From an uncultured Candidatus Saccharibacteria bacterium (GTDB taxonomy: Bacteria > Patescibacteriota > Saccharimonadia > CAILAD01 > BJGX01): DNA of 23,056 nucleotides. The stretch spans positions 1-23,056 of the forward strand of contig CAZSVP010000001.1 in assembly GCA_964610335.1 (NCBI GenBank), written 5' to 3'. Made by a program: the position numbers and the translations under genes. Below are positions 665 to 16,370 of this stretch, piece by piece (within the stretch, counting starts at the first letter, position 1; each line of letters opens with the position of its first letter). The notes below the pieces were generated by a model, which saw only the letters and a program-made list of their open reading frames with translations, had not been told where the DNA came from and searched no databases.

Positions 665-2152
665 TCAAACACCTTTACCTAACAGTTTGGCATTTACCCC
701 AATATCTAGAGTTAGGGCAGCCTCAAGTGGTATCTGCTCTGGCAAGGTAATTGCCAAGCTGCCATCGTCTTCACCCAATTTCACACTAGCTTCACTTCCC
801 AAGAGCTTAACATTTTTAACAGAATTGGCTGCCAAGCCTTTGATTGTTAGCATTCTTTTGCCTGGTGGGTCCAACAGAAACATATAAACCCGTCCTGAAT
901 TTTGCACGAAACGTACCTGGCCACCCTCGTCTGTAGTAGTTGATGCGATACTCCATGGTCGAGAGCCTCTAATAGCACCACCATTGATTTTCATCCACTC
1001 AGCCAGTCCCTTTAGCGGCCGTTGTTGTTCCTCGGGGATTACTCCGTTTTCATCGGGCCCAATGCCAATCAACAAATTACCGTTTTTGGACACAACATCC
1101 ACTAGCATGCGCACTAGCTCGGCAGCGGTAACAATATCTTCTGGTCTTTCGTTGCGGTTGGCACCAAATGAATGTCCCACACCGTGGGTTGCTTCCCATT
1201 TCTTTGCTTGTATCTTGTCGAATACTTGATATTCAGGAGTGCGGAAATCAAACCAATGAGCCGCTGGAAAAGTAAGTGATTTGGACTTTTCTGGAATAAA
1301 GCGCCAGGCTAGCTGGGCAAAGCTACCCAACAACCGCATAGTAGCGACTTTTATTAGTCCACGTTTAGCACTAGGCTCTAGCCAGCGGTCATTGATAACT
1401 CCATCAGACACATGGTTGTAGTAGTAGGCAAATAGCTCTGCTAAATTACCTCCAGGTGGCCATGACACATCGTTCCACAGTACCGATGGTTTATAGCGAT
1501 CAATTAATTCTCTTACCTGCGATGTTGCATATTGTCGATATTCGTCAGTTACCGGGGCGGCAAGAGTAACATCGGCTGGTTTTTTCATAACTGCATTATT
1601 GTACGGCCAGTCGTAGCCACCAGAGTAATACAATCCCATATGCATGCCTTCGTCTCGAACTGATTTAGCCATGTCGCCTACCAAATCGCGCTTGGCATGG
1701 TAATTGGCTCCTTTACGTGGATGGGCAACAGCGGTTGGCCAGAGCGCAAAACCCTCATGATGTTTGGTAGTAAGCACCACATAGCCAGCACCGGCATCTT
1801 TGCAAAGCTTAGCAATATTATTCAAGTTTGCTTTGGCGCTGCCTTTATCGAAAATTGGCACAAAATCGTCGTATGCAAAATTCTCGCCATAGGTTTTAAT
1901 ATGGTGGATTTGAGTAGGGCTGCCCTCTATCTGCATGGTATTCATGTACCACTCTGCATAGGGATTGTTTTTGAGCATCCCTTTGGGTCCTTGTGTTTTT
2001 AGAAGTTCTTGTATGTTGGCTACCTGCGGCGCCCAGCCCGGTACTGAGAACAAACCCCAGTGCAAAAAGATACCCAATTTGCAATCGTCGTACCAATCTG
2101 GCAACGGGTGAGTTTTGACAGATTCCCAACTCGATTTATATTGTGTCTGCAT
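665..2152 (-). CDS. GH29 alpha-L-fucosidase with no signal peptide, so predicted cytoplasmic.
   Basis: N-terminus 'LPDWYDDCKLGIFLHWGLFSVPGW' and 'VLTTKHHEGFALWPT' match the GH29 fucosidase signatures (FUCA1-like 'FGIFIHWGVFSVP', 'TKHHEGF'). I place the start at the ATG at 2152 (GGAGGGTG sits 6 nt upstream) rather than the GTG at 2158 used by the ORF track. Confidence 0.85.
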   Translation of the reverse strand: MQTQYKSSWESVKTHPLPDWYDDCKLGIFLHWGLFSVPGWAPQVANIQELLKTQGPKGMLKNNPYAEWYMNTMQIEGSPTQIHHIKTYGENFAYDDFVPIFDKGSAKANLNNIAKLCKDAGAGYVVLTTKHHEGFALWPTAVAHPRKGANYHAKRDLVGDMAKSVRDEGMHMGLYYSGGYDWPYNNAVMKKPADVTLAAPVTDEYRQYATSQVRELIDRYKPSVLWNDVSWPPGGNLAELFAYYYNHVSDGVINDRWLEPSAKRGLIKVATMRLLGSFAQLAWRFIPEKSKSLTFPAAHWFDFRTPEYQVFDKIQAKKWEATHGVGHSFGANRNERPEDIVTAAELVRMLVDVVSKNGNLLIGIGPDENGVIPEEQQRPLKGLAEWMKINGGAIRGSRPWSIASTTTDEGGQVRFVQNSGRVYMFLLDPPGKRMLTIKGLAANSVKNVKLLGSEASVKLGEDDGSLAITLPEQIPLEAALTLDIGVNAKLLGKGV

Positions 2153-2177
2153 TGCCACCCTCCAATTGTTTTACAAA

Positions 2178-4743: not shown

Positions 4744-5478
4744 TTATGTATTGTATTTTGATTTAAACTCTGCCGAAACTCGTTTGGCTGATTCAATCGC
4801 AACCGTCATACCATCTTGCTTGGCTTTTTGATCAGGCATAGGATTTTGCTCAAAGAACCGATCAACTTGCTTTTGCAAAGTGTTAGCTACATCAGTCATA
4901 CTCTCGGCGCTACCACTAATTGTATTGATGGCCTCAGTAAACCGAGCATTGATATCTTGATACTGTTTGGCATCTATTTTTTCCGCGACCCCTGATTCCA
5001 GCAATCGCCCATCGCGATCTATCCCCTGTGCAGAAAGCTCCATCTGAGTAAGTCCAGTAGTGGTATCGACATAGAGCTGTTCCAATGCTGGATTTTCACC
5101 TCGTCCAACAATTGCGCGAAGTGCAGATACTACAGATTCAAATGATCGTGCTAGTTTAGCAGCTTGCTCACGCAATTCAGAAGCTTGGAGTTTAAGATTC
5201 TGCTCCATCTTCTTAAGCTGCTCTTCGGTCATACGATCTTTTTCGGAATCATCTTGATCTTCTTCAGTTTGTTCTGCAGCACGGTCTTCGGTTTCATTGC
5301 TGGGTTTAGGCGCTTCAACTGTTCCCAGCTGCGATATATCTGGGTGTTCGTAAATAGGATGTACTTCGCTATTCTCAGCTTGTAAATTCTTCAATTGAGC
5401 GGCTAGTTCTTGCTCTCGGCTGAGATTGCCTTCAACTTTCTTGGCTGGATCTGGCGGAAAATCAGATGGATCGGACAT
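4744..5478 (-). CDS. Hypothetical acidic coiled-coil protein (244 aa), soluble.
   Basis: AGGAGGG RBS (complement of 5483-5489) upstream of the ATG at 5478. Glu/Gln/Lys-rich heptad-like sequence 'EEQLKKMEQNLKLQASELREQAAKLARSFESV'. No known domain recognised. Its stop lies 15 nt from the next gene, so it is likely co-transcribed with 4045-4728. Confidence 0.6.
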   Translation of the reverse strand: MSDPSDFPPDPAKKVEGNLSREQELAAQLKNLQAENSEVHPIYEHPDISQLGTVEAPKPSNETEDRAAEQTEEDQDDSEKDRMTEEQLKKMEQNLKLQASELREQAAKLARSFESVVSALRAIVGRGENPALEQLYVDTTTGLTQMELSAQGIDRDGRLLESGVAEKIDAKQYQDINARFTEAINTISGSAESMTDVANTLQKQVDRFFEQNPMPDQKAKQDGMTVAIESAKRVSAEFKSKYNT

Positions 5479-8386: not shown

Positions 8387-8415
8387 ATTATAACCTGATA
8401 AGGCTATATTTTCAA
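8387..8415 (-). promoter_or_regulatory. Promoter TTGAAA-17-TATAAT with the -10 box 7 nt from the iscS ATG (leaderless-type).
   Basis: Complement of 8410-8415 is TTGAAA (it overlaps the upstream stop codon). Complement of 8387-8392 is TATAAT. There are 7 nt (CCACCAA) to the ATG at 8379 and no SD. Confidence 0.5.
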
Positions 8416-9110
8416 TTAAATCGGTCCCAATTGCCCAAATCGTCGGCTCTAGATTCAACGCTGTCATAAAAGCCATCCAGTAGTTGTGACAATTCGCGCA
8501 TCATTGTATTGAGCCTACGTGCTTGAGTTGAGCTAAGAGCAACGTCATTGATGCCAAGTTCACGCTCTGTGTCTATCTTGGTTAATTCTTGCTGTAGATG
8601 TTGTGCATGCTCAACATAACTTAGTTCTATCTCTGATCTTGGTAGATTGAGAGTGACAACCGAAATCTTGCCATCCACCAAATGATATCCTGACCAGCGC
8701 AGGCTTGCTCGTTTTTCTCCAATATTTAGTATTTCTTGCTCAACACTAAAGCCGCCTTGACCATTGTAGTCAAACTGAATTTCGAGGATTTGTTCTCCCA
8801 ACAAATCTAGCTCTTGTAAATTGGCAAACTCTGAGTGTTCAGCTTCACTAATCTTGAAATCCAGATAGTTCATAAGGGCCTCGGACTCTTCAGCCAAGTA
8901 AGTGGTTCGGAGCATCAAGATTATTTGTTGTGTAGTCTCATCGGTACTCGTACTATCCACGCCGTGACGCTGCAACTCCTTACTAAAGCATACTTGCCGC
9001 CTAGTGGTTACCCTCTCGACAAGATCCTGAAACACGATCCCTTCGAACATTTGCTTTTCTTCTTCACTGATATCTCCTGGGTCGCGTGGTGGCGCTGGTA
9101 GCTCAGGCAT
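8412..9110 (-). CDS. Hypothetical acidic protein (232 aa) with no recognisable domain.
   Basis: Good RBS AAGGAG (complement of 9117-9122) 6 nt upstream of the ATG at 9110. The start overlaps the tatD stop by 8 nt (ATGCCTGA). Long uninterrupted ORF. Confidence 0.55.
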   Translation of the reverse strand: MPELPAPPRDPGDISEEEKQMFEGIVFQDLVERVTTRRQVCFSKELQRHGVDSTSTDETTQQIILMLRTTYLAEESEALMNYLDFKISEAEHSEFANLQELDLLGEQILEIQFDYNGQGGFSVEQEILNIGEKRASLRWSGYHLVDGKISVVTLNLPRSEIELSYVEHAQHLQQELTKIDTERELGINDVALSSTQARRLNTMMRELSQLLDGFYDSVESRADDLGNWDRFN

Positions 9111-9891
9111 GGAACAACTCCTTGGTGTTATGGTTGGTTTGATTTACTAGCTGATCGAGCTTGGTGCCACGTAGATCACTTAGGAAATCTGCTATATATA
9201 TGAGATTGGCTGGTTCATTGCGCTTTCCCCGCACTGGCAACGGCGCCAAGAATGGGCAGTCAGTTTCTAGCAGTAACTTATCCTCCGGGATTGCCTTAGC
9301 AGCCTCGAGCTGGGTATGGTCCTTGGTAAAAGTCATGATACCGTTGAGGCCATAATACAAGCCGAACTGGTTGGCTCTCTCTACAACTGTGCCATCGCCA
9401 GTGAAACTATGGATCACCCCACGCAACTTGTGGTGAGATTTGATAATGTCAAAGAAATCATCCCAGCCGTCACGAACATGGAAGATTATCGGTAAATCAT
9501 ACTTTAGCGCCAATCCGATTTGGAATTCTAGCGCGAGCCGTTGTTCAGACTTGGTAGAAAAGTTCTTGTAGTAGTCTAGTCCACACTCTCCTATAGCAAT
9601 CGGCTTAGTAGTTAGATCTTGACCATCAACCAAATCCTCAATCGTGAGCAGAGCATCACTACCCTTGTTGGCATCATGTGGATGCAAGCCAACTGTGGCA
9701 TAAAGCTTGATGCCGCCAGCTTGTTTGAGAACAGTTTGGTCAGATACAAATTCCAATGCTCGCCGCGAATCTTCATCGTTGGTGCCAACAGTAATAATTG
9801 AATCTACTGAATTCTTACGAGCATTGGCAAAAACTTCTGAAATGTCACCGGCAAACTCTTCGAAATGTATGTGAGCATGGGTATCAATCAT
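9103..9891 (-). CDS. tatD: TatD-family metal-dependent DNase/hydrolase.
   Basis: 'MIDTHAHIHFEEF' N-terminal His motif, 'GLHPH', 'ECGLDYY', 'IIFHVRD', 'HSFTG' - the full TatD motif set. Confidence 0.9.
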   Translation of the reverse strand: MIDTHAHIHFEEFAGDISEVFANARKNSVDSIITVGTNDEDSRRALEFVSDQTVLKQAGGIKLYATVGLHPHDANKGSDALLTIEDLVDGQDLTTKPIAIGECGLDYYKNFSTKSEQRLALEFQIGLALKYDLPIIFHVRDGWDDFFDIIKSHHKLRGVIHSFTGDGTVVERANQFGLYYGLNGIMTFTKDHTQLEAAKAIPEDKLLLETDCPFLAPLPVRGKRNEPANLIYIADFLSDLRGTKLDQLVNQTNHNTKELFHA

Positions 9892-9913
9892 ATATTGTTT
9901 ATTATAACTCAGG

Positions 9914-10531
9914 TTACAGCAGTACTGGCTCAGCTATTATTACTTCACGCCCATCGCGCTCGCCGCGAAGTGTGCAGCTATAAAGTGTTAAACGTGGCTC
10001 CGTGGTTTGTGCTTCGATATTTGAAGCATCAGGGGCGACAGTCTCCTTCTTGACCACTCGGTAAGTATAACGGCTGCCCTTGTAGTCCACATACATACTA
10101 TCACCAACAGATAGCTGATTGATATTGTACAAGATAGAGGCACGGCTAACTTGCTGTGGCGTCCAACCAAATACGTAACGGTGAGCGGCCAGAATAGTAT
10201 TGCCTCCATCGGCTGGGTTGCCACGTTCTGGGAAGCGATGCCAGACTTGATTACGGTCCAGTACTTCCCAATCACCTGTTGCGATCGGAGCTGCTACAGC
10301 AATCTTTGGTATCAGTAATTGGTCGTGGGACTTCGAATCTACAGGATGTTGGTCCAAAAACTCGACTTGTTGGGCTTCGGTGAGAGCATTATGGCGCGGT
10401 ACAAACTGTAAGTACACCACATATAATCCAAGTAATAGTATGACTACTAGTGATATTTGCAACAATCGACGCCAACCGCTCGGGCGTGGCGTCGATTTAT
10501 TTGTTGAGTCTTGATTATTTGACGTGGGCAT
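9914..10531 (-). CDS. Sortase (membrane-anchored transpeptidase, likely class E given the LAXTG substrate next door).
   Basis: N-terminal TM 'LLQISLVVILLLGLYVVYL'. Catalytic His in 'TILAAHRYVFG', Cys in 'LTLYSCTLRG', and a conserved Arg downstream. The start lies 17 nt inside the 3' end of the upstream surface-protein gene. Confidence 0.85.
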   Translation of the reverse strand: MPTSNNQDSTNKSTPRPSGWRRLLQISLVVILLLGLYVVYLQFVPRHNALTEAQQVEFLDQHPVDSKSHDQLLIPKIAVAAPIATGDWEVLDRNQVWHRFPERGNPADGGNTILAAHRYVFGWTPQQVSRASILYNINQLSVGDSMYVDYKGSRYTYRVVKKETVAPDASNIEAQTTEPRLTLYSCTLRGERDGREVIIAEPVLL

Positions 10532-12908
10532 ATTTGCGACGTCGCGTGATGCGCTCTACAGCCAAGCCGCCCAAGGCTAAGAATACCAATCCTATTGCTG
10601 CAAAAGTAATCAGGCTAGTGTTGCTACCAGTTTGTGCCAGTGTGCCACCAATTGTTGTTAGTACAATCTGGCTCGATTCACCACCTAAATCTATGTAGTT
10701 TATTCTAAACTGTACACCATTGGCTGTAAATATTGTGCCATCTGGCAATCCGTTGAACTGACCTGTAATGGTGTTATTTAGCGATCGAAGAATAGTAAAC
10801 TGAGTGCCTGGAGCAGGTGTATAGCTCAACATTACATTCAGTGTAGGATTGTTGAGAATAATTTGACCGTTAATGCCAGTCAGAGTCGTTTGATCATATT
10901 GGCTACATGCAGTGCCACCAGCTATTTCTTGGTCAAAAACTGTTGGTGAATTTAACACCAAATCACCAGAAACCGTCACACATCCCGGGCTATTACCTGG
11001 CGAAAATACACCAGTTGTACCTGTTGTAGTTCCGACCGTGCCAGAGCCCCCAAGCGTGCCCCCATTGATACCAAATTCCGCACCAGTATAATCATTGTTT
11101 ACCAATAGCTTGCCACCACTAACTGTAAAGTTCGGCTCGAAGCCAGCTGAAGTTGTACCATTCAGAGTAAATGTGCCAGTCCCTTGTTTATTGACAATAC
11201 CTGGCACAATGTTGTTGGTAGTTATACTACCGGAATAAGTAGTAGAAGTGTTATCAGCACCTACATTGAACGTGTTTTGAACAATATATACAGAACCTGT
11301 ACCAGACAATGATCCAATAGTTTCAGCGTCTGTCTGCAGTTGAGCGTTAAATGCAACCGATTCTATCATGTTAATGTTGGCAGTATCGGCAATTTGTTCA
11401 GCACTGTTTATCTGTACTTGTGAAAGGCCAGCCGTACCATCAATAACTAAGTTGCCTGGAATAGCCACTACACCAGGATCTTTGATCAACTGTAATTCGC
11501 CATCTTCAACGTATGTTGTGCCAGTATATGTATTTGCAGTTGAGCCATCAAGAGTAACAAATGATGTTGGGCCACTCGACTCGAAGTTTAAATTACCATT
11601 GCCATCTATTGTTCCTGCGATAATTAGATTGCTACCACCTGATGAGTAAATAGTGGTGTCACCTGCCAAAGTTATAGTGCCTGTATAGGTTCGGTCATTT
11701 GTATCAGCGGCAATTGCACCAAGGTAATTGCTCGTTCCTTCGCCGGCACCTGAAACTGTTATTGGCTCAGATACGGAAATATTACTAGTTGAATAGAGAG
11801 TAGCACCACTTTCGATTACCGTATTTCCTACTGTAGAACCAAGTGAGTCGCTTAGTGAAGATTGAATAACAGATCCCGATTTTCCTCGTATAACACCATT
11901 ATAGGTTGGACTATTGGTATCCAGCCAACATTTAACATTTGAGCAGCTCAACTCTCCGCTATTTGATAATCCCGAAGATGAAACTAAATATTGTGATGTA
12001 GCTGCACTATTGCCTATAACTTCTAATGATGAGATTAGGTTGACATTGCCAATTGTTTGAAAATTCGAACCATTACCGAGTTGAATTTGAGCGGAGCCAT
12101 TCGCACTTAGGGTCCCGAGAAGTGATACCCCAACTGTATCGTTGAGCTCCATCCCAACCGCTGTTGCACCACTAAGATAATTTAGACCAATGTCATTGGG
12201 CAAGCTTGCATCTCCGGTAAATAACAACTTCGCACCACTGTGCTGAGCAATAAAGTTACCGCTATCACCAGCACAATCGGCCGAAGAACACCCCCAAATA
12301 CCATCAGATACATTTACTCCGCCTACTGTTGTGAATGTCGACCCACTAGCTGATGTAAGAGTTGAAGTTCCCCACTTGTTAAAGTTGGTCATAGTACCTG
12401 TGAAGGCAGGAGCTGTGAAATCAGCATTTACATATGCATTAAAGTCCCCTGCGGGAAGCGTAATTCCAACGGAAGTAGCAATGCTATTTCCTGTACCATC
12501 AATTTGCAAAGACACACCCGTGGCGGCATTGGCAAAATTAAATGCAGATACATTTACGGTACTTCCCGTACTCTGAAATACCATTGAGCCCGAAACAGTG
12601 ATAGCATTGCCAGTCAAGGTATAGCCATCAGCAATATAGAACTGATCAAGCGTGAGAGTGCCTACTATATCGTTTGACATAGTTTTGTTACTAGCTACTG
12701 TAGGTAAGGTTACGATATCACCGTTTTGTGGTACACCTCCTCCACAATTATTCCAGTTAGCAGAATCGCTCCACAGATTACTGCTGGATCCATCCCACTC
12801 ACAAGAATTGGCAGCAACTGCTGGCATCATTGGCATTAGTAATAACGACCAAAAAGCCACAACTGTAGCTACATAAGCATGCAAAAACTTTCTCACAAAA
12901 CCCTCCAT
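10515..12908 (-). CDS. Large secreted cell-wall-anchored surface protein: signal peptide, Ser/Thr/Gly/Asn-rich beta-helical region with PATR-type (autotransporter-associated beta-strand) repeats, and a C-terminal LAQTG sorting signal with TM and RRRK tail.
   Basis: Signal peptide 'FLHAYVATVVAFWSLLLMPMMPAVAA'. Repeats such as 'SPGNSPGCVTVSGDLVLNSPTVFDQEIAG', 'TGTTYVEDGELQL', 'NKQGTGTFTLNGTTS'. C-terminus 'TLAQTGSNTSLITFAAIGLVFLALGGLAVERITRRRKYAHVK', with the LAQTG codons at 10626-10640. I prefer the ATG at 12908 (AAGGT 7 nt upstream) over the TTG at 12956 used by the ORF track. Confidence 0.8.
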   Translation of the reverse strand: MEGFVRKFLHAYVATVVAFWSLLLMPMMPAVAANSCEWDGSSSNLWSDSANWNNCGGGVPQNGDIVTLPTVASNKTMSNDIVGTLTLDQFYIADGYTLTGNAITVSGSMVFQSTGSTVNVSAFNFANAATGVSLQIDGTGNSIATSVGITLPAGDFNAYVNADFTAPAFTGTMTNFNKWGTSTLTSASGSTFTTVGGVNVSDGIWGCSSADCAGDSGNFIAQHSGAKLLFTGDASLPNDIGLNYLSGATAVGMELNDTVGVSLLGTLSANGSAQIQLGNGSNFQTIGNVNLISSLEVIGNSAATSQYLVSSSGLSNSGELSCSNVKCWLDTNSPTYNGVIRGKSGSVIQSSLSDSLGSTVGNTVIESGATLYSTSNISVSEPITVSGAGEGTSNYLGAIAADTNDRTYTGTITLAGDTTIYSSGGSNLIIAGTIDGNGNLNFESSGPTSFVTLDGSTANTYTGTTYVEDGELQLIKDPGVVAIPGNLVIDGTAGLSQVQINSAEQIADTANINMIESVAFNAQLQTDAETIGSLSGTGSVYIVQNTFNVGADNTSTTYSGSITTNNIVPGIVNKQGTGTFTLNGTTSAGFEPNFTVSGGKLLVNNDYTGAEFGINGGTLGGSGTVGTTTGTTGVFSPGNSPGCVTVSGDLVLNSPTVFDQEIAGGTACSQYDQTTLTGINGQIILNNPTLNVMLSYTPAPGTQFTILRSLNNTITGQFNGLPDGTIFTANGVQFRINYIDLGGESSQIVLTTIGGTLAQTGSNTSLITFAAIGLVFLALGGLAVERITRRRKYAHVK

Positions 12909-12959
12909 AGTTTTACCTTGTACTCTATTGTAGCTGTAACTACACCAAAAGCACAAGGA

Positions 12960-14402
12960 CTATTTTTCGAGTCGAGGGAATAGTATGCCGACAGAACTGT
13001 CTACTTTACCATCAGCAAAGATTTGTTTGATCTTGGGGGTAGTATCAGGCAAGAATGGAGCCAGATAGTCTGCCAATACTACTATCTCTGAAGCAATGCC
13101 GCTTAAAACTTCACGCACTTTGGCCGGATCAGTTTTTTGTAACTCCCATGGTTTAGTCTCTTCAATAGCAGCGTTGAGTTCTTCAGCTCGCCTCATAATA
13201 TCGCTCAAATAATTTTCAAAAGCTAAATCTGCAATGTAGCTGTCCAGCTCAAGGTTGTTATCTACCTTGCATACATCATAACTAGCATCACAGTATTTAC
13301 TAAGCATGGCTGCGACTCGCGATACGAGATTGCCAAGCTTATTGCCTAGCTCCGTTTCGTAAACTACTTCGAATCTGTCATGGCTAAAGTCACCATCACT
13401 GCCAAACGGTATTTCTCGCAACAAGTAGTAACGTAGCGCATCGTTGCCATATTGTTTGGCTAGGTCGAGCGGATTTACAACATTGCCAAGGCTTTTACTT
13501 ACCTTTACTCCATCAATAGTGAAAAACCCATGGGCAAATACACGATGTGGTATGGCAAGACCAGCACTCCACAGCATTGCTGGCCAGTATATACAGTGGA
13601 ACTTGATAATGTCCTTGCCAACTATATGTAGATCCGCTGGCCACCATTTATCGAATTCTTCACTGCCATAACCAGCTGCCGTGACGTAGTTGAGTAGAGC
13701 ATCAAACCAAACATACGCTACTTGGGTATCATCAAACGGTAGTTTTATACCCCAAGTTTGGCTCTCGCGACTAATACTAAAATCCTCAAGCCCTCGCTCT
13801 ACAAATGCCAGTATTTCGTTGCGACGTGATGCGGGTTGAATGAAATCTGGATTGTCGAGTATGTATTGTTTGAGCTGATCTTGATACTTCGATAGTTTGA
13901 AGAAATAGTTGTCTTCGCGGATTTGTTCTGGTGCCTTGTTATGATCGGGGCACAGACCATCAACTAGGTCTTCGGGCTTCATAAAGGCCTCATGTCCCAC
14001 ACAGTAAAGGCCTTCATAAACTCCCTTATAAATATCTCCATTGTCATAAACTTTTTGAAGTATCTCTTGAACAGTAATAATATGGTCGGCATCGGTAGTG
14101 CGAATAAATCGATCATACGAAATGCCTAGCTGGTCAAAGGTGGTCTGCCATTTCTTGGCGGTTACATCAGTGTACTGCTGTATGCTCTCCCCAGACTTGG
14201 CGGCAGCGTCAACCGTTTTTTGGGAGTTCTCATCGGTCCCAGTCGCAAACAACACGTTGTTGGGGCCTAATGCCTGTCGGTAATAACGCGCCAGCACATC
14301 AGCGGCAATCGTACTATAAGCATGACCGATATGCGCTATATCGTTGATATAATATATAGGAGTAGTTACATAGAACTTATTTCTTGCGTTTCGGTTTGTC
14401 AT
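12960..14402 (-). CDS. metG: Methionine--tRNA ligase, minimal form without the C-terminal appended domain.
   Basis: HIGH motif 'IAHIGHAYSTI', KMSKS motif 'VKVSKSLGNVV', and the anticodon-binding helical domain. AAGGAG RBS 7 nt upstream of the ATG at 14402. Confidence 0.9.
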   Translation of the reverse strand: MTNRNARNKFYVTTPIYYINDIAHIGHAYSTIAADVLARYYRQALGPNNVLFATGTDENSQKTVDAAAKSGESIQQYTDVTAKKWQTTFDQLGISYDRFIRTTDADHIITVQEILQKVYDNGDIYKGVYEGLYCVGHEAFMKPEDLVDGLCPDHNKAPEQIREDNYFFKLSKYQDQLKQYILDNPDFIQPASRRNEILAFVERGLEDFSISRESQTWGIKLPFDDTQVAYVWFDALLNYVTAAGYGSEEFDKWWPADLHIVGKDIIKFHCIYWPAMLWSAGLAIPHRVFAHGFFTIDGVKVSKSLGNVVNPLDLAKQYGNDALRYYLLREIPFGSDGDFSHDRFEVVYETELGNKLGNLVSRVAAMLSKYCDASYDVCKVDNNLELDSYIADLAFENYLSDIMRRAEELNAAIEETKPWELQKTDPAKVREVLSGIASEIVVLADYLAPFLPDTTPKIKQIFADGKVDSSVGILFPRLEK

Positions 14403-16323
14403 TGATGTGCTCCTTAATTTCCATCATTTCAAGTTCGTCTACCTCTGACTCTAAACTCTTGATACGATTTCTTGAGACTCTAGATTTTACCACAGCTACC
14501 AGCATTACTCCAGATAAGAATACCACTATCAACAACCACCACTGGGTGACTGAATTGGTACGCGCTAGCGTGATAGTGCCGCCAGTAGTTTTGGAAACTA
14601 GTGAATAGTTTTGAGTATTCACAAATTCCTTACCCAGCACCAGGAAGAAACTAGCTGCTTTTTGGCCAGGGGCCAACGGTTTTAGTTGCTTTACTGTTTT
14701 GCTGGCTACCTGCAGGTTGGCATCATTGGTCGCTTGTGACTGTGGTGCAGTAATATCGGCCCAGCCAATACTGACAAATGGTAGTAGCACAAGCTGCTGT
14801 ACAGCAAGTTTTGAGTTATCGGGGATAGGAGGAATCTTTTGGACGTAGTTGAGCGTAGCATTCTCGTATTGATAGTTGAGATCGGTATTGCCAAGCGATA
14901 TAGCAGCCGGGTTGGAGTCACGCGCACCCCATATGGCAAATGTTAAGTGGTCTAAATCACTTACACCAAAGTTGCTAAACTTTTCTCCCCAGGTTGGGTC
15001 TACATTGATCCAGCCAACATTGGGTACATATGCCTCAACCCAACTATGCAGCGAATCACTCACTGAGCTAGACGGCTTGAGGTCACCAGAGTAACCATAC
15101 CCTACCGGCATACGAGCTGGAATACCAGCTGCGCGCAGCAGACTTATACTCAAATCAGAATATTCCAGACAAACAACGTTGCTAGGGTTGGTTAGGGCCT
15201 TAACACCACCTTGACGAACATTGTATTTGATCTTGTCGTTGTTGTATGTAAGTGTTTCTATTACGTAGTTATTAATTGCTTTGACTTGCTCTGCAACGCT
15301 TGTTTTACCTTGAGTCAACTCGCGCGCCTTACGCTTGATGTTAGGGTTATCCGACTGCCAATACGTTGTACTATTAGTGTAATTCCTTACCAATTCTCTT
15401 GGGATATCAGCCTTGGTGCCACTAGCAGCCAAATCATATTTCTTGTATCGAACTTCAGCCAATATGTCCGTCTGAACATTTATAGAAGTACGGGGTGGCA
15501 CTTCGTAGTCAGCCAAAATATTACCATCACTATCTAAGCTAGTAGTGGTTGGTTGCGGATTGAGCGAATTTATATACACCGACTGTGTAGGGGTGTTTGG
15601 AGGTAGAGTTACAGTGAATGTTCTGGGTAGACCGGTCTCGTTTTTAAGTGGAAACCCGAAGTTTACCTGATAAATGGTCTTGTCCCCAAATACCATGGTG
15701 ACTGGTTGGTTATTGAGCTCTTCACGAGGAAAAACATACAGTGTTTTGTCGTTGGGTGCAGGAGTTGCTACTGGTTTGACATCACTGCTTTGTAAGCTAC
15801 CAAAACTATCGGGTATAAGGACTTGGATATTATATTTGTCGCTCGAGTCAGCGGCAATTGATGGTATGTATACCGTATGCCCACCACCCTTGGAGTCAAC
15901 AAGCTTTGTAGTGTCATAGTGAACTTCAAAGGTCCATTGGTTACCAAGACCAGTGTTACGCCGGTTAAAATCTACTACTATTTGCTGATAATCATAATTG
16001 TAGCCTTTGCTTTGAGCGGTCTTTTTTTGTGTAGTGGTATGCAAACTTGTGCCATCACTATAGCTAGCCTCTAAGTTTTGCACATCATCGCTAGGAGTAG
16101 AGATTTGGATACTTTGCAGGTAGCGATTGCTTGAGTCGTTGGTGACAGTGTATCTCTCGGTAACATGCGTAACCCCTGTCACATCAACATCGTAGTTAAC
16201 TAGAACATTGTAGCGAAAGTCGTCTTGGGCATGTGCCAGTCGTATAAAAAGCAGCCCAACTATAAGTGCAAGGACTAAGAACGAAGTATACTTCAAGAAC
16301 TGTTTGTACACGGTACGCAACAT
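14377..16323 (-). CDS. Bitopic membrane protein with a large extracytoplasmic region ending in a transglutaminase-like (papain-fold) Cys-His-Asp core and a C-terminal TM plus charged tail.
   Basis: TGase-like core 'NVVCLEYSDLSISLLRAAGIPARMPVGYGY' (Cys codon at 15169-15171), 'LHSWVEAYVPNVGWINVDPT' (His, Asp). N-terminal TM 'FLVLALIVGLLFI' and C-terminal TM 'WWLLIVVFLSGVMLVAVV'. The start is ambiguous between the ATG at 16344 and the ATG at 16323; I chose 16323, which begins directly with the signal/TM segment. Confidence 0.7.
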   Translation of the reverse strand: MLRTVYKQFLKYTSFLVLALIVGLLFIRLAHAQDDFRYNVLVNYDVDVTGVTHVTERYTVTNDSSNRYLQSIQISTPSDDVQNLEASYSDGTSLHTTTQKKTAQSKGYNYDYQQIVVDFNRRNTGLGNQWTFEVHYDTTKLVDSKGGGHTVYIPSIAADSSDKYNIQVLIPDSFGSLQSSDVKPVATPAPNDKTLYVFPREELNNQPVTMVFGDKTIYQVNFGFPLKNETGLPRTFTVTLPPNTPTQSVYINSLNPQPTTTSLDSDGNILADYEVPPRTSINVQTDILAEVRYKKYDLAASGTKADIPRELVRNYTNSTTYWQSDNPNIKRKARELTQGKTSVAEQVKAINNYVIETLTYNNDKIKYNVRQGGVKALTNPSNVVCLEYSDLSISLLRAAGIPARMPVGYGYSGDLKPSSSVSDSLHSWVEAYVPNVGWINVDPTWGEKFSNFGVSDLDHLTFAIWGARDSNPAAISLGNTDLNYQYENATLNYVQKIPPIPDNSKLAVQQLVLLPFVSIGWADITAPQSQATNDANLQVASKTVKQLKPLAPGQKAASFFLVLGKEFVNTQNYSLVSKTTGGTITLARTNSVTQWWLLIVVFLSGVMLVAVVKSRVSRNRIKSLESEVDELEMMEIKEHINDKPKRKK

Positions 16324-16370
16324 GGTTCTATAATAACATGTCATGATCTGGTTTGGGCCAACTAGCTTTT

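Follow-up and report, generated by a model that had tools for sequence, protein, structure and literature searches.

The stretch of DNA analysed here (the window) comprises 23,056 nucleotides (nt) of contig CAZSVP010000001.1 and carries a gene for a 797-amino-acid (aa) surface protein, the 3' end of which overlaps the gene for a 205-aa sortase. The 797-aa protein is probably a Sec-exported, non-enzymatic beta-helix rod that is covalently anchored to the wall of a Saccharibacteria-type monoderm by the sortase encoded in the overlapping gene, and is likely to have a surface-binding role. The source organism itself is probably of the Saccharibacteria type, ultrasmall and epibiotic. The predicted anchoring mechanism is well supported by the sequences of the pair and its relatives. 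Given the comparisons below, its most likely role appears to be surface binding, with glycans as the probable ligand, in adhesion to a host cell or matrix; adhesion to the host in particular is a tentative suggestion.

The C-terminal sorting signal

The features that bear on the anchoring of the 797-aa protein are listed here, with the evidence in parentheses.

10515..12908, minus strand: predicted beta-helix surface protein gene, 797 aa (open reading frame (ORF) list, orthologues, AlphaFold2 (AF2) model).
10626..10640, minus strand: LAQTG sorting pentapeptide, residues 757-761, codons 10640-10626 (sequence and conservation).
10518..10625, minus strand: hydrophobic helix and basic tail, SNTSLITFAAIGLVFLALGGLAVERITRRRKYAHVK (pattern scan; AF2 helix 764-792).

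In the 797-aa protein, LAQTG is followed by 24 mostly hydrophobic residues (SNTSLITFAAIGLVFLALGGLAVE), then by RITRRRKYAHVK and the stop codon, and the C-terminal tail is basic (RRRK). A pentapeptide, about 20 hydrophobic residues and a basic tail at the extreme C-terminus are the arrangement of a sorting signal, and the scan of every window ORF of at least 100 aa detected xxxTG followed by a hydrophobic stretch and a basic tail in this protein only. Ten orthologues were found, with identities of 37-100%. In 9 of these, LA[QP]TG or LVPTG is followed by a transmembrane helix and RR(R)K, whereas the tenth stops short of the anchor region, the available sequence being without a sorting signal. 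Because the tripartite signal is unique among the window ORFs of this size and is kept in 9 of the 10 orthologues, it is not, judging from pattern and conservation, a chance occurrence. Across the wider family, L[APSV]xTG or [AV]PNTG with a transmembrane helix and a basic tail terminates 61 of the 65 representatives of at most 1000 aa. The first-pass annotation of this DNA had described LAQTG, a hydrophobic helix and RRRK at this C-terminus and had made its interpretation dependent on conservation of the arrangement in orthologues; both the description and the conservation hold.

The overlapping sortase

9914..10531, minus strand: gene for a 205-aa membrane-anchored sortase (PF04203, alignment of 24 homologues, AF2, Foldseek).
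10515..10531, minus strand: overlap of the substrate gene end with the sortase gene start, 17 nt (sortase ATG at 10531).
10406-10477, minus strand: sortase transmembrane helix, residues 19-42 (AF2 prediction).
10181-10183, 9974-9976 and 9947-9949, minus strand: catalytic residues His117, Cys186 and Arg195, respectively.

The 205-aa downstream product is a true sortase, as had been proposed at first pass. It matches Pfam PF04203 with 62.2 bits (cutoff 26.6) and falls marginally under the cutoff of TIGR01076 (38.7 bits; cutoff 39.35), and every one of its 62 homologues in the protein collection carries PF04203. In the alignment of 24 homologues, conservation reaches at least 90% at H117 (LAAHR), C186 (TLYSC) and R195, which line up with the catalytic positions in solved sortases of classes C and D (4g1j, 4d7w). 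The AF2 model (predicted local distance difference test score (pLDDT) 86.5) consists of the N-terminal transmembrane helix and a beta-barrel of residues 71-202; with this model, Foldseek retrieves 132 PDB sortase structures at E<=0.001, with target-normalised template-modelling scores of up to 0.75. Thus, the family hidden Markov model (HMM), the His-Cys-Arg triad and the eight-stranded beta-barrel fold of the sortase superfamily are all in evidence. The loop between strands beta3 and beta4, where class E enzymes carry a characteristic Tyr that recognises Ala at motif position 2, reads WHRFPERGNPADGGN, with an invariant R99.

The start of the sortase gene lies, as originally noted, 17 nt inside the substrate gene (ATG at 10531; substrate stop codon at 10515-10517). 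Because of this overlap and because no Shine-Dalgarno sequence is visible before ATG 10531, translation of the sortase is likely coupled to that of the substrate gene. Overlaps also occur at related loci (17 nt in L001, 37 nt in L008 and 35 nt in L011).

The assignment of this enzyme to class E, initially deduced from the LAxTG motif, is not borne out because its own sequence scores poorly: class E model NF033747 gives 31.8 bits against a cutoff of 160, and the class D and class C models and structures score higher. The NCBIfam class models, the cutoffs of which are 140-165, yield 37.9 (SrtD), 37.0 (class C), 35.7 (class D) and 31.8 bits (class E), and the sortases of L001 and L008 likewise fall short of the class E model. 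Among solved sortases, the family profile finds class D 4d70 (55 bits), 2ln7 (44) and class C structures (~37), with SrtE1 (5cuw) at rank 15 with 31 bits. Assignment of the class by structure was dropped, since classes C, D, A and E obtain near-equal scores in the fold search and are not separated.

The presence of class C enzymes among the closest solved relatives, both by sequence and by fold, raises the question of whether the sortase might, as class C enzymes do, link copies of the 797-aa protein covalently into a pilus-like polymer. However, class D, A and E structures score just as well, and the 205-aa sortase has neither a C-terminal transmembrane helix nor an evident lid segment. The substrate, for its part, is one continuous predicted beta-helix without CnaB/Ig pilin domains or a pilin-motif region. 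A pilus-like polymer appears exceedingly improbable.

Covariation of sorting motif and sortase

The substrates linked to the sortase clade of the window carry LA[QP]TG, LVPTG or LADTG. The HMM of this clade scores 215-305 bits on the sortases that adjoin LAxTG substrates, which come from four lineages, namely the window and L001 (LAQTG), L008-L010 (LAPTG) and L012 (LADTG). On the sortases beside [AV]PNTG substrates in L011 (7408-8076), L015 (7447-8067) and L006 (6610-7626), the same HMM yields 12 bits or nothing. The latter three enzymes are similar to each other (E 2e-26), unlike the window's enzyme (E 0.004), and appear class-F-like by sequence: NF033748 (class F) is their best model by far, with 98-114 bits, under its cutoff of 166. 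Given that L011 shares the KsgA/NUDIX/G5/UvrD neighbourhood of the window, it looks as if the sortase was replaced at this locus and the sorting motif switched along with it. The partition of the motif by sortase type is complete across the seven linked pairs. No other line of evidence at hand speaks as strongly as this covariation for the neighbour being the cognate enzyme.

The C-terminus could also be read differently, with the hydrophobic helix serving as a permanent membrane anchor, the sortase acting on other proteins and xxxTG being incidental. Several observations weigh against wall attachment by the overlapping sortase, the first two of which would also suit this alternative. The tail is unmatched by the curated models Pfam Gram_pos_anchor PF00746 and TIGR01167 at E<=1, so that the sorting signal is recognised from pattern and conservation. 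In many members of the family, the helix gene lacks a sortase neighbour: none was found within the flanks read at L003, L013, L014 and L016-L020, and since 8 of the other 14 sampled lineages are without the adjacency, linkage of the pair is not obligatory. Furthermore, the covariation comes from a small sample, the seven linked pairs only. Nevertheless, xxxTG is found at a fixed spacing before the transmembrane helix in 61 of the 65 representatives although tail identity is low, the motif type switches with the type of the adjacent sortase, and the gene overlap is conserved. Permanent membrane anchoring is therefore highly improbable.

Under covalent wall anchoring, the signal peptide (residues 1-33) would direct Sec export of the 797-aa protein, and the C-terminal hydrophobic helix and the RRRK tail would retain the precursor in the membrane. 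By the established mechanism of the sortase family, Cys186 of the N-terminally anchored enzyme would cut LAQT/G between Thr760 and Gly761 through a thioacyl intermediate, and Thr760 would be joined to lipid II, through which the protein would reach the wall. A rod of ~720 residues would then jut from the wall, with a conserved wall-proximal module, a variable mosaic middle and a conserved N-terminal cap. With Thr760 linked to the wall, the rod would hold its variable body and its conserved cap away from the cell.

The 797-aa protein: sequence features and predicted fold

12810..12908, minus strand: putative signal peptide, residues 1-33 (basic n-region, hydrophobic core, cleavage-type site AVA/A).
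12717..12809, minus strand: N-terminal cap motif C36-x-W-x-G...W...NW..C..GGVP..GD, residues 34-64 (invariant columns).
11487..11555, minus strand: best PATR match, residues 452-474, segment NTYTGTTYVEDGELQL (TIGR02601, PF12951).
10653..11210, minus strand: C-terminal 'pre-anchor' beta-helix module, approximately residues 567-752 (most conserved part of the family).

The full ORF spans 10515-12956 on the minus strand, and translation from ATG at 12908 gives the 797-aa product. The alternative start GTG at 12896 is equally plausible; it is preceded at 5 nt by GGAGG, a perfect match, whereas ATG 12908 is preceded only by a weak AAGG, and the identical public protein P0001 begins at GTG 12896. 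The choice of start shifts the length by 4 residues and leaves the other results on this protein unchanged. Scans of the region 9000-14600 for promoters (16 predicted against 12.0±3.7 in shuffled sequences) and terminators (6 against 4.4±2.4) detected no excess over the shuffles. The protein is rich in Gly (13.3%), Thr (12.5%), Ser (11.0%) and Asn (8.7%), which together account for 45.5% of the residues, in agreement with the initial description of a Ser/Thr/Gly/Asn-rich protein of about 800 aa. The mature part is acidic (51 D+E against 12 K+R) and of low complexity.

In the AF2 model, the signal-peptide region contains a predicted helix (residues 2-23) followed by residues 25-30 of low confidence; the A-x-A motif is kept in the alignment of orthologues. 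The invariant columns of the cap in orthologues are C36, W38, G40, W46, N51, W52, C55, G57, G58, V59, P60, G63 and D64, of which W38, W46, N51 and W52 stay invariant once distant PATR proteins join the alignment. The 8 cysteines form four close pairs (36/55, 207/212, 322/327 and 643/668) that are likely to be disulfides, judging from the sequence; 36/55, 207/212 and 643/668, the three pairs checked for conservation, are invariant or almost so. At two related loci, L015 (2220-4756) and L017 (9384-10028), thioredoxin/DsbD/glutaredoxin or DsbA genes are found beside the helix gene, and these Dsb/thioredoxin-type neighbours hint at extracytoplasmic disulfide formation.

The model of the 797-aa protein, built from a 19-sequence alignment, has a pLDDT of 89.3 and a predicted template-modelling score of 0.77. 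Residues 35-755 are all-beta, an unbroken run of short strands between the signal helix and the C-terminal helix, and Foldseek matches include 7jvi and the passengers of EspC, Ssp, SepA, EspP, Hbp, Ag43, Hap and pertactin. The predicted model accordingly has the right-handed parallel beta-helix of the pectin-lyase-like fold, and the beta-helix expected at first pass agrees with these matches to solved structures. The PATR repeats described in the same annotation are confirmed in part. Homology to PATR proteins is clear, with phmmer E-values of 1e-46 to 1e-16 against PF12951-bearing proteins, the best match being an autotransporter-associated beta strand repeat-containing protein of Pontiella (E 1e-46). 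The HMMs, however, recognise a single borderline unit at residues 452-474 (TIGR02601 20.4, cutoff 19.85; PF12951 16.1, cutoff 27), and the 'SPGNSPGC...' segment that had been taken for a PATR repeat is outside this match, within the C-terminal module.

Some of the PF12951 relatives also carry an autotransporter barrel (P0023) or PEP-CTERM (P0024, P0025). The orthologue profile has a single sequence match among solved proteins, the Serratia autotransporter Ssp (8e7f; E 2.6e-8); the alignment pairs profile positions 563-736 with residues 430-608 of the passenger construct, which has 618 residues. Based on this match, the stretch of ~180 residues that precedes the sorting signal is homologous, at the sequence level, to the part of a type Va passenger that adjoins the barrel. 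The barrel itself is absent: PF03797 has no match in the 797-aa protein, and the C-terminus is a single helix in the AF2 model.

Distribution, conservation and mosaicism of the family

An exhaustive profile search against 1.84 billion representatives returned 30,075 matches, which represent the PATR superfamily and are mostly long PATR proteins. The best 150 matches comprise 85 long proteins (>1000 aa) of the Planctomycetes-Verrucomicrobia-Chlamydiae (PVC) type, essentially without sortase-like tails, and the 65 representatives of at most 1000 aa, which are uniform in length (mostly ~780-830 aa). At least 61 cluster representatives of ~800 aa end in xxxTG, a transmembrane helix and a basic tail; among the 61 in the best 150, motif positions 1-2 are LA in 26, LP in 9, AP or VP in 7, LS in 6 and LV in 4. 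The four exceptions among the 65 are three incomplete sequences and one protein with a different C-terminus. Because the tail arrangement is shared by 61 of the 65, the combination of helix and sorting signal defines a large family and is not the one-off, unusual fusion it had seemed from the window alone. In most of the PVC-type relatives of >1000 aa (P0012, P0013 and many of P0100-P0234), a small beta-rich domain is followed by a conserved C-terminus of the ...RFYR[LVF]xxP type; from its sequence, this ending may be another C-terminal sorting or secretion tag.

Conservation across 62 sequences is highest at the two ends of the helix, with 0.59 in the N-terminal cap (41-80), 0.31-0.41 in the middle (81-360) and 0.52-0.60 in the C-terminal module (601-760). 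Pairwise comparisons of P0002-P0009 with the window protein display abrupt changes of identity. P0002 is 90-100% identical over residues 1-350 and 42-54% identical over 351-450 and 601-750, whereas P0006 and P0007 are 24-38% identical over 51-350 and 66-88% identical over 351-600. This block mosaicism suggests intragenic recombination or segment exchange and is in keeping with a conserved stalk that carries, at its distal end, a body that is exposed and diversifies.

The C-terminal module (...GTF.GL.DGA.F...F.I.Y...) is also found in proteins of other organisms, where it precedes different anchors: an autotransporter barrel in P0023, PEP-CTERM in P0024, P0025, P0239, P0240, P0244, P0245 and P0247, and AP[DA]TG with a transmembrane helix and a basic tail in P0241-P0243. 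The PEP-CTERM and AP[DA]TG variants came from a word-indexed protein search with the C-terminal 228 aa, which yielded nine distant fragments. In several proteins of this set (P0023-P0025, P0239-P0247), the module is followed by VPEP-type PEP-CTERM or MYXO-CTERM-annotated tails. Judging from these sequences, the module appears to act as an anchor-independent 'pre-anchor' cassette. Surface proteins of other kinds in Saccharibacteria likewise end in this module and an xxxTG signal, for example the two tandem PD40 (WD40-like beta-propeller) proteins of L004 (4879-6534 and 6543-8243), a locus in a Saccharibacteria metagenome-assembled genome (MAG); these proteins end in VPNTG, a transmembrane helix and a basic tail, and there is no sortase gene nearby.

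Relationship to known systems and likely role

The type Va passengers and PATR proteins (Ssp 8e7f, Vag8, UpaB, pertactin, Ag43 and the PVC-group PATR proteins) have in common with the 797-aa protein a right-handed, three-faced beta-helix rod, the barrel-proximal end of which, in Ssp, is the homologue of the last ~180 residues of the helix; the N-terminal W..G..W..NW cap is common to the PATR proteins and the 797-aa protein. Thus, the beta-helical passenger with a conserved barrel-proximal segment, which characterises type Va autotransporters, is present, but the 797-aa protein has neither the PF03797 beta-barrel translocator nor an outer membrane to hold one, and its helix ends instead in LAQTG, a transmembrane helix and RRRK and is paired with a sortase. 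Beta-helix adhesins with LPXTG are known from Firmicutes, namely PfbA of S. pneumoniae (3zpp/4mr0) and the binding region of the L. reuteri SRRP (5nxk). In these, pectate-lyase-like helices of 200-400 residues are embedded in multi-domain proteins that are served by class A sortases, whereas the 797-aa protein is built on an autotransporter-type helix of ~720 residues, carries LAxTG and has a divergent sortase of its own. Its model scores higher on autotransporter passengers than on the PfbA and SRRP structures. With the class E/LAxTG housekeeping system of Actinobacteria (SrtE1 5cuw; T. fusca SrtE 9iv0), the window pair shares the LAxTG motif and the N-terminal membrane anchor of the enzyme; the window sortase is nevertheless unlike class E in its scores, as detailed above.

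The nearest structure, CapCBM89 (PDB 7JVI), is a non-catalytic beta-helix that binds xylan and arabinoxylan (PMC8810776). It is a carbohydrate-binding module (CBM) of a Bacteroidaceae GH10 xylanase and matches the 797-aa protein in fold, with an identity of only 16%; CBM89 is an N-terminal module of an enzyme, whereas the 797-aa protein is stand-alone and predicted to be wall-anchored. Judging from its structural neighbours, the rod is probably non-enzymatic and probably glycan-binding. The beta-helix could, alternatively, be a wall-displayed enzyme (a pectate-lyase-like polysaccharide lyase, a glycosidase or an esterase) that digests glycans of the host or the matrix. Given that no catalytic family HMM matches the 797-aa protein in the Pfam and NCBIfam scans and that the nearest fold, CBM89, is non-catalytic, the non-enzymatic interpretation is preferred, and an enzymatic function appears very unlikely.

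The variable mosaic middle is what an exposed binding surface would be expected to show and hence supports a binding role. Several observations nonetheless count against this role, or against its extension to the host. The uniform length of ~800 aa and the core-genome position would suit equally a sortase-anchored structural coat or spacer, fibrillar or S-layer-like, that sets the geometry of the envelope without being a ligand-specific adhesin; the location of the gene among housekeeping genes, conserved across divergent genomes, and the acidic, low-complexity mature part are also compatible with a coat. In S. epibionticum, a cultured oral species, host binding is ascribed to type IV pili together with VCBS, dockerin and FN3 proteins (PMC10633639), and nothing in the tables for this organism is annotated as autotransporter or PATR (PMC10633639). 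A coat is still an unlikely alternative to surface binding: the orthologues are block mosaics with poorly conserved residues 81-360, a pattern that looks like an interaction surface diversified by exchange, the closest structural match is a carbohydrate-binding module, and there is no hint of lattice-forming contacts.

Data from related organisms provide some context for both components. The tables for S. epibionticum ML1 list a 199-aa sortase, SEML1_0711, that is annotated as 'class E sortase' and, in transposon sequencing (Tn-seq), is non-essential with a growth advantage upon disruption, and a 448-aa sortase, SEML1_0327, that falls in the growth-defect/essential class and is encoded beside an essential PEGA-domain protein (PMC10633639); these are compared with the window sortase by annotation. 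The essential envelope factors reported for S. epibionticum are type IV pili, a type IV secretion system, and VCBS, dockerin and FN3 proteins (PMC10633639). Attachment of TM7x to its host relies on glycans of the host wall, and the existence of further adhesins that act at close range has been proposed (PMC11623550). Reports of sortases in TM7, and of proteins predicted to be sorted, go back to 2013 (PMC3812714), and the sortase family is represented in more than half of the genomes of the Candidate Phyla Radiation (CPR) (PMC6744442).

Thus, beta-helix LPXTG adhesins (PfbA, SRRP) and TM7 sortases were already known, and the new element is the PATR-type helix family with a sortase signal. The literature search found no description of an autotransporter-passenger/PATR-type helix family with sortase signals, of the conserved linkage of this family to a divergent sortase in Saccharibacteria, of the co-switch of motif and sortase, or of a single pre-anchor module being combined with barrel, PEP-CTERM, MYXO-CTERM-type and sortase anchors. 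It likewise found no paper that connects Saccharibacteria to LPXTG substrates of this type, or PATR proteins to sortase. Like other CPR bacteria, Saccharibacteria live on host bacteria to which they are attached and, to our knowledge, few attachment or surface components besides type IV pili have been defined in CPR. The helix family provides a concrete, widely conserved, predicted wall-anchored candidate for such a component, and relatives are now genetically tractable. The occurrence of one pre-anchor module with four anchoring systems bears on the re-use of surface proteins across the diderm/monoderm divide, and the LAxTG/[AV]PNTG split by sortase clade amounts to a natural experiment on sortase specificity; the sortase clades could also supply new sortases for protein ligation.

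A broader and rather improbable scenario is that the family represents a lineage-wide, vertically inherited surface organelle of Saccharibacteria, an autotransporter-type passenger helix in which the barrel was swapped for a sortase signal, the mosaic distal half sets the host surface glycans that the epibiont binds, and the sortases are interchangeable. The swap would have followed the loss of the outer membrane in CPR or a transfer from a diderm, with the membrane-proximal module being kept, and the motif would co-evolve with the sortases, LAxTG with the clade of the window and [AV]PNTG with the class-F-like enzymes.

Genomic neighbourhood

All genes of the 23-kb window are on the minus strand, and the related loci identified in the genome scan belong to Candidatus Saccharibacteria/Saccharimonadales MAGs. 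Gene order in L001 (58% identity) and in L008/L009 (GCA_029781735.1) is the same as in the window: transglutaminase-like, MetRS, beta-helix gene, overlapping sortase, (PNPOx), TatD, aminotransferase and DUF218. In more distant members, the neighbourhood is still recognisable as that of the window. The order is UvrD, NUDIX, G5, HAD, KsgA, MarR, helix gene and overlapping sortase in L011, and TIM, PPase, x, UvrD, helix gene, a 473-aa gene, sortase, BipA and G5 in L012; the window, for comparison, has TIM, PPase, ABM, UvrD, G5/Rpf, NUDIX and KsgA. In L015, the sortase is immediately downstream of the helix gene. The pair of helix gene and sortase therefore recurs across related genomes (L001, L008/L009, L011, L012 and L015), as the synteny comparison proposed at first pass would anticipate, and synteny with housekeeping genes holds at loci whose proteins share just 30-58% identity. 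An origin from a mobile element was considered and rejected, as the G+C content is flat and the housekeeping flanks are in conserved order.

Among the other genes of the window, 665-2158 (minus strand) encodes a GH29 alpha-L-fucosidase (PF01120, 290 bits) together with its C-terminal domain; a GH29 enzyme in an apparently reduced Saccharibacteria genome may hint at a habitat with fucosylated glycans, perhaps animal- or mucus-associated. A 655-aa transglutaminase-core protein (14377-16344, minus strand) is encoded directly upstream of MetRS, with a 26-nt overlap; this gene is kept in place in L001 and L008 and is absent from the L011 arrangement. Two ORFs have no Pfam match, one of 244 aa (4744-5478, minus strand) and one of 232 aa (8412-9110, minus strand). 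The latter overlaps the end of the TatD gene by 8 nt and has a counterpart of the same size at that position in L001.

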